NCBI GenBank assembly: GCA_963707915.1
Contig: OY970178.1
Coordinates: 2,656,001-2,720,000, forward strand
From: Candidatus Eiseniibacteriota bacterium
GTDB lineage: Bacteria; Eisenbacteria; RBG-16-71-46
Length of the DNA stretch: 64,000 nucleotides
Reading direction: 5' to 3'
Below, one piece after another: positions 27,391 through 33,271 of this stretch. The position numbers and the translations under genes are program-made. Numbering within the stretch: the first letter of the stretch is position 1; each line of letters starts with the position of its first letter. The notes below the pieces were generated by a model. That model saw only the letters and a program-made list of their open reading frames with translations. It was not told the DNA's origin and did not search any database.

Positions 27391-28152
27391 ATGGGACGAA
27401 TAATCTCGATTGCCAGCCAGAAGGGCGGCGTCGGCAAGACCACGACGGCGATCAACCTTGGCGCGTGCCTGGCGCAGGAGAGCCGGCGTGTGCTCATCAT
27501 CGACGTTGACCCGCAGGCGAACGCGACGAGTGGGCTTGGAATCAACGGCAACGATCAGAAGAACACGATCTACGAGGTCCTCATCGGCCATGCGGAACTG
27601 GCCGATTCGGTCCTCCCGACGGCGCTGGCGAACCTGGACGTGGCGGTCTCCGGGCAGCGGCTCTCCGGGGCAGAGGTCGAGCTGGTTGGGATGATGGCCC
27701 GCGAGACCAAGCTCAAGCACGCGGTCTCGAAGGTGCGCGACCGGTACGACTACATCCTGGTGGACAGTCCCCCTTCGCTCGGGCTGCTCACGGTCAACGC
27801 GCTCACCGCCTCCGATTCGGTGTTGATTCCACTGCAGTGCGAGTACCTGGCGCTCGAGGGGTTGACGCAGTTGATCGGGGCCATCCGGCTGGTCCAGGAC
27901 CACCTGAATCCAGGGCTCAGGATCGAGGGTGTCCTGTTGACCATGTACGACTCTAGGCTCAACCTCTCCCAGCAGGTCGCGGAGGAAGCGCGGAAGTTCT
28001 TCTCCGAGCGCGTCTATCGCACCGCGATCCCCAGGAACGTGAGACTGAGCGAAGCACCTTCCTTCGGCAAGCCGATAGTCCTGTACGATCCACACAGCAC
28101 GGGTGCCGAGAGTTACCGGGACCTGGCGCGGGAGGTCCTTGACCATGCATAG
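27391..28152 (+). CDS. parA: Chromosome partitioning ATPase ParA/Soj
   Basis: QKGGVGKTTT, DPQANATSG, DSPPSLG, PLQCEYLALEG, PRNVRLSEAPSFG. Confidence 0.97.
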   Translation: MGRIISIASQKGGVGKTTTAINLGACLAQESRRVLIIDVDPQANATSGLGINGNDQKNTIYEVLIGHAELADSVLPTALANLDVAVSGQRLSGAEVELVGMMARETKLKHAVSKVRDRYDYILVDSPPSLGLLTVNALTASDSVLIPLQCEYLALEGLTQLIGAIRLVQDHLNPGLRIEGVLLTMYDSRLNLSQQVAEEARKFFSERVYRTAIPRNVRLSEAPSFGKPIVLYDPHSTGAESYRDLAREVLDHA

Positions 28153-29008
28153 GAAAGTACTGGGGCGTGGACTCGAGGCGTTGATCCCGCCATCCGACAG
28201 CGTTGCCGTGGCGCCAGAAGCTGCCCGCAGCGCGACGTTGGAGTTGCGGGTCGATGAGATCGTCGCGAACCCCTACCAGCCGCGGGTCAACTTCGACGAT
28301 GAGGCCATCCAGGAACTGGCAGCTTCCATCAAGGCCACGGGTGTTCTCCAGCCTGTCCTGGTTCGCCGCAAGCCTGGTGGCGGTGGGTACCAACTGGTGG
28401 CCGGGGAGCGTCGCCTCAGGGCGACCGTCGTGGCCGGGATCAAGCTGATTCCTGCGATCGTCAAGGAGGTCGCGGACCGGGAAATGATGGAGCTCTCGCT
28501 GGTCGAGAACATCCAGCGCGAGAACCTCAACCCGATCGAAGAGGCCAAGGCCTACCAGACCCTGGCCAAGGAGCTTGGACTGACCCACGACCAGATTTCC
28601 GAACGCGTTGGGAAACAACGTGTTTCTGTAACAAATTCGTTGAGATTGCTGGGCCTTCCTCCGGAGGTCCAGGAGATGGTTTCACGTGAAACGTTGAGCG
28701 CCGGGCACGCCCGGGCCCTCCTCGCCATCGACAAGGCCGCCGACCAACTGGCCGCGGCCCGCTACGTTCAGAGCAAGGGATTCTCGGTCCGCCGTACCGA
28801 GGCATTCGTGAGGCGCAAGCTGCGGCGGCTGCACTCGCGCCCCCGCGCCCAGAAGCTCGACGGGCTGCGTGAGTGGGAGATCCGCCTCCAGCAGAAGTTC
28901 GCCACGCACGTTGCGATCACGCCTGGGAGAAAGGGCGGCAAGGTCGAGTTCGAGTACTACGGGCAGGAGGACTTGGAACGCCTCTTCGAAATCTGGGGAG
29001 TGCTCTAG
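28145..29008 (+). CDS. parB: Chromosome partitioning protein ParB/Spo0J
   Basis: LGRGLEALI, NPYQPR, AGERRLRA, ENIQRENLNPIEEA. Confidence 0.97.
   Translation: MHRKVLGRGLEALIPPSDSVAVAPEAARSATLELRVDEIVANPYQPRVNFDDEAIQELAASIKATGVLQPVLVRRKPGGGGYQLVAGERRLRATVVAGIKLIPAIVKEVADREMMELSLVENIQRENLNPIEEAKAYQTLAKELGLTHDQISERVGKQRVSVTNSLRLLGLPPEVQEMVSRETLSAGHARALLAIDKAADQLAAARYVQSKGFSVRRTEAFVRRKLRRLHSRPRAQKLDGLREWEIRLQQKFATHVAITPGRKGGKVEFEYYGQEDLERLFEIWGVL
28678..28693. promoter_or_regulatory. parS site within parB
   Basis: GGTTTCACGTGAAACG; perfect 14-bp core palindrome encoding VSRET. Confidence 0.88.
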
Positions 29009-29068: not shown

Positions 29069-29470
29069 ATGTTCCGTTCGCGAGCATCCAAGGTCGAGAC
29101 TCCGGCGCCCAGCGCGCTGGTCGGCGTTGGGGCGAGTTTCCACGGCACCTTGATGGTTCACGGCACGCTCCGCATCGACGGCGAATTCGAGGGCGACATC
29201 CTGGACTGTGACCGACTCGAGATCGGCGAGCACGGCATGATGAGGGCCGACGTCGAGGTGAAGGAGGCGGTGATTCGCGGCCGCGTCCACGGCAACATCC
29301 GAGCGCTGGGAGCGGTCGAGATGAAGCAGGGCGCCCACATCGAAGGCGACGTCGCGGCCGTCAACGTGGTGATGGAGTCCGGCGTCTACTTCACGGGTCG
29401 TTGCACGATGCTGGACACGGGGACCGAAGGCGTCCAGATCCAGACCGAGAACCCACGCTCCCGTAGTTGA
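29069..29470 (+). CDS. Bactofilin (polymer-forming cytoskeletal protein)
   Basis: GTLRIDGEFEGDI...LEIGEHG...IRGRVHGNI...IEGDV beta-helix repeats. Confidence 0.92.
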   Translation: MFRSRASKVETPAPSALVGVGASFHGTLMVHGTLRIDGEFEGDILDCDRLEIGEHGMMRADVEVKEAVIRGRVHGNIRALGAVEMKQGAHIEGDVAAVNVVMESGVYFTGRCTMLDTGTEGVQIQTENPRSRS

Positions 29471-29608: not shown

Positions 29609-31084
29609 GTGCCGGTGAGATCCGGCCGCTGTTCGTCCCTGGATCCCGGGGCTGTCCTGCGCTCAGGCCCGGGAGCGCCGCCCGACTTCGAGCGCCCGTC
29701 CAAGCCGGTATCGCGATGGCCTCTGCGTCTCGTTTCAGCTACTGTTATATGTTGTAATATATTCAGTTATGGCATTTCGTCAGGACACGACTCGGCCCCG
29801 GCGCGCACCTCCGCCCCGGTCGTGGCGTCCGGGTGCGCGCCGGGTGGCTCGTTCGGCGGCGAGCTCACTTCCCCGTCGCCGCCGCTCGCCTCGCTGTCGT
29901 GGCCCGAGGGGACGCAGGTGCTCCCCTTCGAGGACCTCGAGGGGGCGATCCTCGTGCGTGCGAAGCTCGCCCCGGGTTCCGGGCGCGACACGAGCGGGGT
30001 CTTCGTGTTCGACACCGGCGCCGGATTCCTCGCCCTGGACCTGCCCCTCGCCCGCCTGATCGGCATCGCCGACGACGGCGCGAACCCGGCGGCGGTGGAC
30101 ATCGCTGCCCGCCCCCTCGCGCGCCTCGAGCTGGGTGGGCTCCAGATGGACCAGGTCTCGCCCGTCCTCACCGTGGACGCAGGGGTGATCCGGCGGGTCA
30201 CCGGCCGTCCCGTTCTGGGTCTGCTCGGGCAGTCGCTGTTCCGCGACCGGGTGGTGGTGCTGGACTACCTCGAGGAGGCCATGGCGGTCCTCCCTCCCGA
30301 GCACGACCCGGCCACCTCGACCCCTGCCTCGAGGCTGGCCCTGTCCACCGACGCCCGGGCGGTCCCCTTCCGCCTGGTCGGTGACGGGAAGGTGCTGGTC
30401 TCCGCCTGGATCACCGTCCGGGTCGGATCACCGGCCGAGCGGGTCACGCTGATCGTGGACACCGGCGCGACCAAGAGCGTCCTGTTCCGCTCGGCGCTCG
30501 ACCGGCGGCTCCCCGGTTGGAAGGACTGGCCGGCGCTCCGGGGACTCGGGGCCCCGACCCTCATCGGGGAGGCGAGCGCCGAGCTGGTCCGGGTCCCCGG
30601 GACCGAGCTCCGGGGGGATGGCGGGAGCGTCGGTCGCCCCGGGATGGACGCCGCCGTGCTCGACGGCGGACTGGCCAGGGTGCTCGAGGAAGACGTCGGG
30701 GAGCCGGTGGCCGGCCTGCTCGGGTACTCGTTCCTCAAGCACTACCGGATCGTCGTGGACTTCCCCCGCGGCGTGCTCTGGCTCGACTCCTCCCGGGGCG
30801 ATGTGGTGGACCGTCAGGACGAGTACTCCCACCCCGGTCTCCAGCTCGAGAGCGTGGGCGAAGCGATCCGGATCGTCGCCGTCGCGGACGGCTCGCCAGC
30901 CTCGCGTGCCGGCCTCCGCGCGAGCGACGAGCTGGTGGCGATCGACGGCGAATCGGTCTCCGGTCTCGACGTCGTCACCGTCGCGCGGAAGCTCGAAGGC
31001 ACGCCCGGAACCGGGCTCTCGCTGAGCGTGAAACGAGGCTCGCGCGAGTGGATCTGCCGGCTCGTGCGCAAGCGGCTGCTCTAG
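29609..31084 (+). CDS. Aspartyl protease (two retropepsin-like domains) with C-terminal PDZ
   Basis: FVFDTGAG and LIVDTGAT motifs, GLLG, SPASRAGLRASDELVAIDG; start uncertain. Confidence 0.85.
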   Translation: MPVRSGRCSSLDPGAVLRSGPGAPPDFERPSKPVSRWPLRLVSATVICCNIFSYGISSGHDSAPARTSAPVVASGCAPGGSFGGELTSPSPPLASLSWPEGTQVLPFEDLEGAILVRAKLAPGSGRDTSGVFVFDTGAGFLALDLPLARLIGIADDGANPAAVDIAARPLARLELGGLQMDQVSPVLTVDAGVIRRVTGRPVLGLLGQSLFRDRVVVLDYLEEAMAVLPPEHDPATSTPASRLALSTDARAVPFRLVGDGKVLVSAWITVRVGSPAERVTLIVDTGATKSVLFRSALDRRLPGWKDWPALRGLGAPTLIGEASAELVRVPGTELRGDGGSVGRPGMDAAVLDGGLARVLEEDVGEPVAGLLGYSFLKHYRIVVDFPRGVLWLDSSRGDVVDRQDEYSHPGLQLESVGEAIRIVAVADGSPASRAGLRASDELVAIDGESVSGLDVVTVARKLEGTPGTGLSLSVKRGSREWICRLVRKRLL

Positions 31085-31377
31085 CCCGGAATCGCTTCGA
31101 AACGCGCCCGAAATCATGTCACGATATTTCGTGAATACGCCGCTATTGCGCCGCGAAGAAACCGTGCAATTGGCTGTCGTCCAACGCGATCTCACGTTCA
31201 CATGGAATCACGGCATATCGTGATTATCGCGGGCGACGGGACAACGACCGGCTCCGACTTGCCAGCGCCGAGGAAGCCCGAAATGGCCGGGTCCGGAGCG
31301 TCCCGTGGAGGGCTCTCCGGACCCGTGACAAGCGTCGTACTCGAACGTCCGCGATCGCGCCGCGGCGCGCGCCGCGA

Positions 31378-31836
31378 TCAACTCGCGGCAGCGAGATCCT
31401 CGTCCAGGGTATGCAGCGCGCGGAGTCTTCCACGCACCTTTTCGACCCTCGCCCCGCTCACCGTTTCCACCGAGTACGGCTCGTCCCAGATCAGGTTCCC
31501 CCGCAGCCAGACCCTCAGCTCCGGGTAGGCCTGGAGGAGGGCGAGGCCGGTCCGTCCCTTGAGCTGGCGGACCGCGCTCGCGACACTCTGGGTGGGGCTC
31601 AGCCCGAGCATCAGGTGGACGTGCTGAGGCGCCGCCGCGAACTCCACCAGGGCGAAGTCGAGGTCGTCGCAGGACCGCTGGATCAGGTCGCGCAGGGTCC
31701 GGGCGTGGCGCTCCCTCAGCACCGGCCGGCGGCTCCGCGTACTCCAGGTGATCACGTAGTGGAGCTGGCTCCGGTAGACCGGCTCCCAGCGTCCGCGCAA
31801 CGCTTCATCGACCTCGGGGGCGAACTGGCTGTCCAT
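31378..31836 (-). CDS. IS200/IS605-family TnpA (Y1 HUH) homolog lacking the catalytic Tyr
   Basis: HYVITWSTRSRRPVL, HVH, VRQLKG, W...YSVETV; KVRGRLRAL where YIxxQ is expected; AGGAGG RBS at 31844-31849. Confidence 0.85.
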   Translation of the reverse strand: MDSQFAPEVDEALRGRWEPVYRSQLHYVITWSTRSRRPVLRERHARTLRDLIQRSCDDLDFALVEFAAAPQHVHLMLGLSPTQSVASAVRQLKGRTGLALLQAYPELRVWLRGNLIWDEPYSVETVSGARVEKVRGRLRALHTLDEDLAAAS

Positions 31837-31852
31837 GTTCCTGCCTCCTGTC

Positions 31853-31872
31853 TACTGAACATGCGTGCAGTA
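31853..31872. promoter_or_regulatory. Putative LexA (SOS) box upstream of the tnpA-like gene
   Basis: TACTGAACATGCGTGCAGTA palindrome; 18/20 identical to the lexA-upstream copy. Confidence 0.8.
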
Positions 31873-31972
31873 TGCCGTCACAGTTATTGATGCCCTTCGA
31901 TGCTTGGGGGTTCACCCGATCGCGCGCGCCAGCGGTTCCCGGACGACGGGAGCCGGGGCCGGCCGCGGCCTC

Positions 31973-32572
31973 CTAGCCGCCCACCGTCCGCAGCACGCCG
32001 GTGACCACGCCGAGGATGCGGAAGTCCTGGTCGCCGGTCACCTGGATGGGCTGGTACTTCTCGTTCGCCGGCACCAGCTCGATCCTGCCATTCCGAGGCT
32101 GGTAGTACTTGACCGTGGCCTCGTCGCCGATCAGGGCCACGACCATCGCGCCGGGCTTCGCCTGGTCCCGCTGCCGCACGATGACCACGTCGCCCTCGAG
32201 GATGCCGGCGTCCACCATGCTGTCTCCCCGCACCCGCAGGGCGAACAAGTCGCCGGAGTCGCCGAACACCTGGCCCAGCTCGAGGCGGTCCTCGATGCAC
32301 TCCTCGGCCAGGATGGGCTGGCCCGCGGCGACGCGGCCGAGCAGCGGGATGCCGGCGGCCTGCCCGACCGAGGCCAGGCTGCAGCCGCGCGAGACTCCGC
32401 CGCGGTGCTTCAGGTAGCCGGCCTTCTCGAGCATGCTCAGGTAGTAACGGACCCCGTTGGTCGAAGAGATGCCGAAGGCCTTCCCGATCTCGCGGATCGT
32501 GGGGGGCATGTCGTGCTTGTGCTGGAAGCTCCGGATGTAGGACAGGATCTCTCGCGCTCGGTCGTTCAACAT
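31973..32572 (-). CDS. lexA: SOS transcriptional repressor LexA
   Basis: PPTIREIG HTH, RVAAG cleavage site, GDSM (Ser) and ATVK (Lys). Confidence 0.96.
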   Translation of the reverse strand: MLNDRAREILSYIRSFQHKHDMPPTIREIGKAFGISSTNGVRYYLSMLEKAGYLKHRGGVSRGCSLASVGQAAGIPLLGRVAAGQPILAEECIEDRLELGQVFGDSGDLFALRVRGDSMVDAGILEGDVVIVRQRDQAKPGAMVVALIGDEATVKYYQPRNGRIELVPANEKYQPIQVTGDQDFRILGVVTGVLRTVGG

Positions 32573-32621
32573 GACTCGCGCCTCCGGTTGGCCTCGTCCA
32601 CCATGGACGTCGACGCACGGC

Positions 32622-32651
32622 AACGTACTGCACAAGCGTGCAGTATGTCAA
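32622..32651 (-). promoter_or_regulatory. lexA sigma70 promoter with embedded LexA box (32626-32645)
   Basis: Minus strand TTGACA-N18-TACGTT; spacer occupied by TACTGCACGCTTGTGCAGTA. Confidence 0.82.
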
Positions 32652-33271
32652 GGGTCGAATTTCCGCCCGGAATCAGCGGGAAAGTCGGCGATCCCGTGCA
32701 CGGTGGCGACGCCCCGTGCCTCCCGGCGACGGCACGCCGAAGCGCAGCGCGCACCGGGCCGGGGACGTCCATCGGCGGACGCGAGGTGGCACGGCGTGGA
32801 CGGTCGCCCTCGGTGGACGTCCGCGCACCGGACGCTGCCATGGCGTCCGCACCCGCGAAAGACGCGGGTTCGCGCATCCTCCCCGCCCGGTCCGCGTGTT
32901 GGTCCGCGCCTTGCGATGCGTCGAGGCCGAGGTCGCAAGACCTCTGCAAGAGAAGCGGGGAGCGGGGGCCGGACCCGTGGAGGTTGGCCGCAATCGGGGG
33001 CCGGTCGGCTGAAGCGGTCCGCCCCGCCACCTCGTGGATCGAGCAGGACGCGCCGGCCCGGCACCACCTGACCGTGGAGCCGGGCTCCGTCCTTTCCTGG
33101 TGACGGCCCGGACCACCCGGAACTCGTTGGTGCCGTGACGGATGGCCCGGCCGTCCAACCGCTCGAGCCTCAAGTCGCCAGAGCGCCTACCGACACTACT
33201 ACGAGCAGGATTCGCGATCGCGCACCTCAGGCGATCCCGGGCAGGGGGACGGTCCCCAGTTGGAGGGCACG

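Follow-up and report, generated by a model that had tools for sequence, protein, structure and literature searches.

A Tyr-less IS200/IS605 TnpA homolog beside lexA: a very likely domesticated host gene and candidate SOS protein of Candidatus Eisenbacteria

Introduction

The window of this study is a stretch of 64,000 nucleotides from the closed, single-contig genome (G000, 3.62 Mb) of an uncultured member of Candidatus Eisenbacteria, and the gene in question is an open reading frame (ORF) of 152 aa at 31378-31836 on the minus strand. The working name tnpX is used for this ORF and for its lexA-linked orthologs. The analysis revealed a homolog of TnpA, the Y1 transposase of the IS200/IS605 insertion sequences, which has lost the catalytic tyrosine, is present once in the genome, is found next to lexA in every related locus and is held under purifying selection. 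tnpX is very likely a domesticated, non-transposing host gene bearing a LexA box. As for its function, the evidence leans towards a non-catalytic, dimeric protein which would be induced in the SOS response, bind structured single-stranded DNA (ssDNA) and act with translesion synthesis. The window was compared with 30 loci from relatives and 77 loci from public genomes, two sets whose genomes overlap. The window's own family is denoted f1 and its sister families f3 and f2.

Results

The tnpX protein matched the Pfam family Y1_Tnp (PF01797) at 79.8 bits (cut-off 23) and the NCBIfam IS200/IS605 transposase model NF033573 at 82.1 bits (cut-off 55). The initial annotation of this DNA, made from the letters alone, had described the gene as a catalytically dead TnpA, and the motifs which it listed were all recovered, namely APQHVHL with PQH and the HUH motif (HVH, residues 72-74), QLKGRT with LKG, WDEPYSVETV matching W...Y.VETV, and KVRGRLRAL. 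The phmmer alignment with ISDra2 TnpA (2xm3; E 4e-14) placed residues 21-135 on 16-130 without a gap, so that Arg137 of tnpX falls on ISDra2 residue 132, the site named in the Protein Data Bank (PDB) title of the 'Y132F' mutant structure 2xo6. Arg137 stands at the position of the catalytic Tyr and Leu141 at that of the metal-binding Gln, and YxxxQ has become RLRAL in the window.

The comparison of YxxxQ was drawn from alignment A1, holding the window, P0001, P0006 and 18 homologs outside the lexA-linked clade; Tyr and YxxxQ were present in 18/18 of these homologs, and the window, P0001 and P0006 carried Arg in the Tyr column. A larger alignment of 134 rows (35 from the clade and 99 others), in which the Gln column was too gappy for use, gave R 28, K 2, V 1 and gap 4 for the clade. 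Tyr occurred in none of the clade rows, thereby supporting the replacement proposed earlier and leaving no Tyr-keeping ortholog among them. It occurred in 78/99 of the remaining rows, the other 21 being mostly fragments with a few Y-to-F/W variants. Four metagenome IS200-like proteins (P0088, P0113, P0125 and P0093) had Phe or Trp in this column, some of them keeping the Gln; they are isolated inactive variants that form no clade among the sampled sequences. The related claim that no Tyr codon lies in another frame held only in part. The codon TAC exists 4-5 codons downstream in another frame, and an indel is excluded because the RLxxLH frame is conserved in all orthologs.

The HUH motif has decayed as well. 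H72 is kept in 26/35 and H74 in 30/35 clade rows of the 134-row alignment, and the motif reads RVH in ortholog L004, QIR, RVH or QVR in f3 and RLD or HVN in f2. The residues W31, R34, R90, R108, W117, Y121 and T125-S127 are invariant in the orthologs and Arg137 is nearly invariant.

The AlphaFold model of tnpX, with a predicted local distance difference test score (pLDDT) of 83.8, showed a TnpA-like core predicted with confidence (residues 21-141), followed by a disordered tail (142-152). The best PDB matches of this model by Foldseek were the TnpA proteins of ISDra2 and IS608 (E 2e-11; template modelling score 0.73-0.79, target-normalised). A homodimer through residues 20-27, 80-87, 89 and 120-130 was predicted with an ipSAE interface score of 0.76 vs 0.32 for the best control; the mark for a dimer was reached by 20/30 solved homo-pairs and 1/23 single chains, and the runs shared at least 63% of contacts with pLDDT of at least 78. 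This predicted dimer indicates likeness to TnpA and is not proof of dimerisation, and it may reflect the memory of the model for solved TnpA dimers. The window protein ends in LAAAS, and the f1 tail is conserved, acidic and disordered, ending in [LFW]-A-x-A-[SGC]. The f1 tail may serve for docking or degradation, and it presumably resembles ClpX-type tags.

The position of the gene is as the initial annotation had given it, directly downstream of lexA on the same strand, with tnpX starting 136 nt after lexA. The ribosome-binding site AGGAGG (31844-31849, minus strand) lies 7 nt upstream of the tnpX ATG, and GGAGG ahead of the start is kept in related loci. A LexA-type operator, TACTGCACGCATGTTCAGTA, occupies 31853-31872 on the minus strand and ends 16 nt before the ATG. 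Its core TGCAC-N4-GTTCA is one mismatch from a palindrome, the full form on the minus strand being TACTGCAC-GCAT-GTTCAGTA. The lexA gene (31973-32572, minus strand, ATG at 32572 with GGAGG upstream) encodes 199 aa with the Pfam domains LexA_DNA_bind and Peptidase_S24 and matches NCBIfam TIGR00498, the model of full LexA, at 186 bits. Its operator TACTGCACAAGCGTGCAGTA at 32626-32645, upstream of the gene, is the perfect palindrome TACTGCAC-AAGC-GTGCAGTA. Both the ribosome-binding site and the copy of the lexA-promoter palindrome had been recognised correctly from the sequence alone.

The search for signs of mobility in the closed genome gave negative results. No second Y1_Tnp match was found with the Pfam model, no tnpB-type PF07282 match was present, in accordance with the earlier remark that tnpB is absent, and blastn revealed no repeated copy of tnpX or of its flanks in the own genome. 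The gene was single-copy also in closed or near-closed assemblies (G000, G020 and G004). Among 41 relatives 37 had tnpX matches, nearly always one each (23/24 in the same family and 10/10 in f3, a tally of ten genomes which includes the unpublished G026). The Pfam model matched in 81/89 f1 genomes, and copies beyond the lexA-linked one were seen in about six of them (G107, G136, G117, G023, G147 and G007). As a separate observation, G119, a metagenome-assembled genome (MAG) of 5.2 Mb, holds two extra copies of the arrangement box, lexA-like gene, box and tnpX on short contigs (L121:3468-4691 and L122:1419-2641); the lexA-like genes there are broken across frames and the tnpX copies are of the dead type. 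These copies probably represent variant strains or faults of assembly and not paralogs.

That tnpX is a host gene was indicated by synteny, divergence and selection. The lexA gene lies directly upstream on the same strand in 30/30 relative loci and 77/77 public loci, and the wider neighbourhood of the latter is conserved, with a PDZ-aspartyl protease gene in 39, a bactofilin gene in 32 and parB in 21. Ortholog identity declines smoothly with distance from 89% to about 40%, and the reading frame is intact in 29/30 relatives. The ratio of nonsynonymous to synonymous substitution (dN/dS) was calculated by the Nei-Gojobori method (NG86) for 253 pairs of 23 f1 orthologs, the frameshifted L025 being dropped and the divergent f3/f2 sequences excluded. 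Close pairs gave 0.13-0.20 for tnpX vs 0.13-0.23 for lexA, and the median over all pairs was 0.27 vs 0.32, values from a method which is crude at 72% G+C with near-saturated dS. The proposal that the gene is retained by the host, put forward in the initial annotation, agrees with these results.

The operator is conserved with the gene. A box stands ahead of tnpX in 77/77 public loci and ahead of lexA in 76/77, the exception (L051) ending before the site; in the relatives set the tnpX box was found by pattern in 28/30, with one mismatch in L010 and no box in L025. The two boxes differ in symmetry. The third base of the right arm of the tnpX box is T in 70, G in 5 and A in 2 of the 77 loci, and its spacer keeps an A-T start, whereas the lexA box is symmetric. 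The asymmetric form TGCAC-N4-GTTCA occurs once in the 3.62-Mb genome, ahead of tnpX. The symmetric TGCAC-N4-GTGCA was observed five times against about three expected by composition, and four of these five sites have the extended form CTGCAC-N4-GTGCAG and are all intergenic. They precede lexA, a DUF6504-polY-DUF72 cluster, a DUF6504-like/ImuB-like/DnaE2-like cluster and mraZ-rsmH. A hairpin with a T-run terminator lies between lexA and the tnpX box in 46/77 loci and is absent in the window's genus; tnpX is therefore usually its own transcription unit. In its sequence and placement the palindrome behaves as a LexA operator, and binding by LexA itself is presumed. The motif presumably resembles the Fibrobacter-type LexA box (TGCNC-N4-GTGCA). 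Reads of a soil metatranscriptome run (X1, 5% of sampled words) contained partial lexA of relatives only, at 90-95% identity, and no tnpX, and are uninformative on expression.

Comparison of sister families revealed a link to error-prone polymerases. In all nine genomes compared (six of the ten f3 genomes and three f2 genomes) tnpX is followed by a same-strand Y-family polymerase gene, with DUF6504 between the two in some and DUF72 after the polymerase in some. No further box was found downstream, so the tnpX box heads the operon. The outgroup consisted of eight lexA loci in five genomes from other families of the class; a polymerase, or DUF6504 and a polymerase, directly follows lexA in 6/8 of them with no tnpX between, and the clade profile (A2) found no match in four of these genomes and a weak one in the fifth. 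Each outgroup genome carries a pair of lexA genes, and behind most of these genes lies a polymerase cassette (L127-L134). The orthologous cluster of the own genome, DUF6504-polymerase-DUF72, is found 2.3 Mb from tnpX and has a box of its own.

The range of the clade was examined with the same profile. It matched in 100/206 genomes of the phylum, and strong matches were confined to one order (f1 80/88 and f3 10/10), f2 matching in 3/3 but weakly. Other families gave no hits or weak hits to ordinary transposases (f18, for example, 0/41). A library of 1.84 billion representatives held just 47 proteins reaching E 1e-10, and the ESM Atlas contained the own cluster and ordinary IS200 clusters only. 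The clade is restricted, as sampled, to one order of the phylum.

The other features of the region and genome are as follows. Two boxed cassettes are present in the own genome. One (G000:C1:380886-383325; loci L126 and L032) encodes DUF6504, a DinB-like polymerase and DUF72. The other (G000:C1:2263001-2269011; L034 and L125) encodes a DUF6504-like protein, an ImuB-like Y-family polymerase, a 293-aa ORF product without Pfam hit and a DnaE2-like Pol III alpha of 1147 aa. The PADLOC anti-phage library had no match for tnpX or DUF6504, and no paper on DUF6504 was found in the part of the literature searched. A box CTGCAC-GATT-GTGCAG at L033:2069-2082 (G000:C1:1221469) precedes mraZ-rsmH, with which the cell-division cluster opens, by about 100 nt, and as a motif hints at SOS control of division genes. 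A second LexA-like paralog is encoded at G000:C1:3347537-3348136, with 35% identity over about 200 aa. Within the window, a GC-rich inverted repeat at 31288-31325 (16-nt arms, 88% complementary, 6-nt loop) follows the tnpX stop codon by about 55 nt, in the space between two convergent genes. It may be a transcription stop and lacks a T run. A scan for consensus promoters and terminators over 31000-32800 found none, and the host's own promoter type may differ from the consensus. The neighbours are parB (28103-29008), a bactofilin-like gene (29069-29470) and a gene for a PDZ and aspartyl-protease protein (29609-31084) convergent with tnpX. The lexA-tnpX pair lies in a stable, probably origin-proximal region.

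Discussion

The loss of the catalytic Tyr and of the Gln ligand, together with conservation of the remaining core, suggests a protein from which the chemistry was removed and the fold retained. Canonical TnpA binds ssDNA hairpins. The TnpA of IS608 is also reported to bind DnaN, the beta clamp, and fork-like DNA, and to be found together with stalled forks in the cell (PMC5027513), and transposition of ISDra2 is reported to be triggered by irradiation (PMC2806898). On the basis of this hairpin, fork and clamp binding, tnpX is read as a scaffold which would keep DNA recognition and dimerisation with cutting lost. A survey of the superfamily reports the HuH and Y motifs as retained in each of its classes (PMC6006769).

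The following course of events is proposed. LexA would repress tnpX through the operator of the gene itself, and on DNA damage LexA would be cleaved and the tnpX protein made. The protein would bind structured ssDNA, such as hairpins, gaps or DNA resembling a stalled fork, but leave it uncut, and would work beside the LexA-controlled DUF6504/Y-family-polymerase module in damage tolerance. The suggestion of an SOS accessory factor, one of two offered by the initial annotation, fits the data better than the other, a brake on transposition, and gains from the f3/f2 operon with Y-family polymerases, with induction itself being a supposition. A narrower version is more tentative and may well be wrong: a new kind of accessory factor for translesion synthesis, a nuclease-dead HUH dimer which would recognise gapped or hairpin-forming ssDNA at stalled forks and would recruit or hold the DUF6504/Y-family-polymerase module there, with the tail as docking or turnover signal.

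The origin of the arrangement can be outlined from the outgroup. The ancestral order would have been lexA-(DUF6504)-polymerase, and an IS200-type gene would have inserted at the lexA-polymerase junction in the ancestor of one Candidatus Eisenbacteria order. Its chemistry would then have been lost and the gene retained as an SOS gene; later the polymerase module would have left tnpX in f1, and tnpX remained under selection. The adjacency of lexA and polymerase without tnpX in most outgroup loci fits capture at that junction. Capture of an IS200-type gene between lexA and a polymerase operon is the most likely history, although the direction of the steps is inferred.

Several observations weigh against the proposed role of tnpX in damage tolerance or against the evidence for its retention. 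LexA binding, damage induction, DNA binding and cooperation with the polymerase are all inferred. In f1 no polymerase gene was found in the flank of any locus and the module is elsewhere in the genome, which makes the operon link indirect for the window gene. The f2 orthologs (L118, L119:2572-2970 and L120) are very divergent (31-35% identity) and end after 'RLWD', with the last strand and the former Tyr helix missing and HUH lost; the gene still has lexA on one side and DUF6504-polymerase on the other, and the box ahead of it is degenerate. The f2 form may be decaying, and an essential function common to the families would then be less likely. One relative, L025:1416-1836 (G023, f1), is the only one with a frameshifted tnpX and has no box, which may be real loss or a contig error. 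There was no Y1_Tnp match in 8/89 f1 genomes, all of them fragmented assemblies. The quick tree recovered the clade as one group with a Shimodaira-Hasegawa-like approximate likelihood ratio (SH-aLRT) value of 93, under the 95 mark of the tool, and its monophyly rests thereon. The crudeness of the dN/dS method belongs to the same account.

Among the other explanations, the one which survives best is that tnpX regulates the LexA circuit, binding LexA, RecA filaments or the operators as duplex or extruded hairpin and tuning SOS timing. It is unlikely, though it draws on real features of the locus. The lexA gene is the only unvarying linkage, kept even where the polymerase genes have left; the operators are short sequences able to form perfect hairpins, and hairpins are recognised by the TnpA proteins of IS608 and ISDra2 according to PDB titles; and the GTTCA asymmetry of the tnpX box is kept in nearly all public loci. 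However, staying by lexA could be ancestral gene order, and the f3/f2 operon layout points to the polymerase module.

Less probable is an SOS effector without a role on DNA, for example in a division or growth checkpoint, in which the old fold would now serve as a scaffold for binding other proteins. The genes sulA and yneA are division-checkpoint genes which adjoin lexA in other bacteria, and the position of tnpX beside lexA, the LexA-type box ahead of mraZ-rsmH in the own genome and the conserved flexible f1 tail, docking- or degradation-like, would suit such a role. Against this, the TnpA-fold core, with the invariant residues given above, is strongly conserved, including strand and helix elements which contact DNA in the family, and in f3 and f2 tnpX shares its operon with DNA polymerase genes.

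It is improbable that tnpX is still a metal-dependent ssDNA nuclease, with water or another residue as nucleophile and no covalent Tyr intermediate. The HUH histidines are mostly kept in f1 and Arg137 is nearly invariant, but no ortholog retains Gln, the third ligand of the metal, and in several f3/f2 orthologs both histidines, and in L004 one, are replaced with the gene intact. No precedent was found in the literature searched, and we know of none for a Tyr-less HUH nuclease of such kind.

A dominant-negative inhibitor poisoning IS200/IS605 transposase dimers or occupying insertion sequence ends during SOS, as the initial annotation had suggested, is very improbable: TnpA acts as a dimer, the dead protein is predicted to dimerise by the same surface and ISDra2 is mobilised by irradiation, as cited above, but the closed genome has nothing to inhibit, another Y1_Tnp sequence is found in few f1 genomes, and although MAGs can lose repeats, the closed or near-closed genomes are single-copy too. 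The brake was rejected for want of an IS200/IS605 target. Equally improbable, and rejected on account of purifying selection and intact frames, is a relic kept for its promoter or operator DNA or as a spacer with a functionless protein; the truncated f2 copies and the frameshifted L025 would agree with it, but dN/dS is as low as for lexA and the gene is kept in f1, where its neighbour on the downstream side is convergent and nothing beyond it relies on its promoter or reading frame.

Three known systems come closest to tnpX, the non-catalytic structured-ssDNA binder proposed here. The IS200/IS605 TnpA proteins (ISDra2 2xm3/2xma, IS608 2vjv/2vju and IS200 2f4f) share with tnpX the Pfam domain, the fold, the size and the predicted merged-sheet dimer, and the window protein keeps HUH, LKG and W...Y.V.TV. 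Unlike them, tnpX has neither the catalytic Tyr nor the Gln ligand, no insertion sequence ends, no tnpB and no extra copies, and repeated flanks were not found; it has instead a fixed place by lexA, a LexA-type operator and N- and C-terminal extensions. LexA-regulated mutagenesis cassettes include imuA-imuB-dnaE2, and dinB is found by lexA. tnpX shares with such cassettes the operator and, in the f3/f2 operon, Y-family polymerase genes, but it is transposase-derived, and no such cassette member was found in the literature searched. The RAYT or TnpA-REP proteins (for example 4er8) are likewise Y1 relatives turned single-copy host genes, with a weak fold match to tnpX (Foldseek E 5e-5). RAYTs are reported to retain both HUH and Tyr and to lie amid arrays of repetitive extragenic palindromes (PMC8266576 and PMC6006769), whereas tnpX has no Tyr, no repeated flanks were found, and it scores 35 bits on the RAYT model NF047646 (cut-off 80).

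Conclusion

No paper describing the tnpX family was found in the part of the literature that was searched. The present analysis adds the range of the clade at the level of an order, the erosion of HUH, the comparison with operons of sister families and with the outgroup, the split SOS cassettes of the own genome, the asymmetry of the box, the tail motif and the dimer prediction. Domesticated transposases are, to our knowledge, rare in bacteria. The known domesticated Y1 case, RAYT, keeps the chemistry, whereas tnpX has discarded it and would keep the DNA-recognition scaffold alone, within the SOS regulon and, through the f3/f2 operon, in connection with error-prone polymerases. If the proposed account is true, it would correct a systematic mis-annotation, as tnpX passes the cut-off of the NCBIfam transposase model and its cluster in the Atlas bears the name 'putative IS200/IS605 family transposase', and it would offer a clean natural example of an insertion in a regulated promoter region becoming a host gene. 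In tnpX the bacterial response to DNA damage probably has a component not described before, and if its mechanism holds it would represent a new protein class for damage tolerance.

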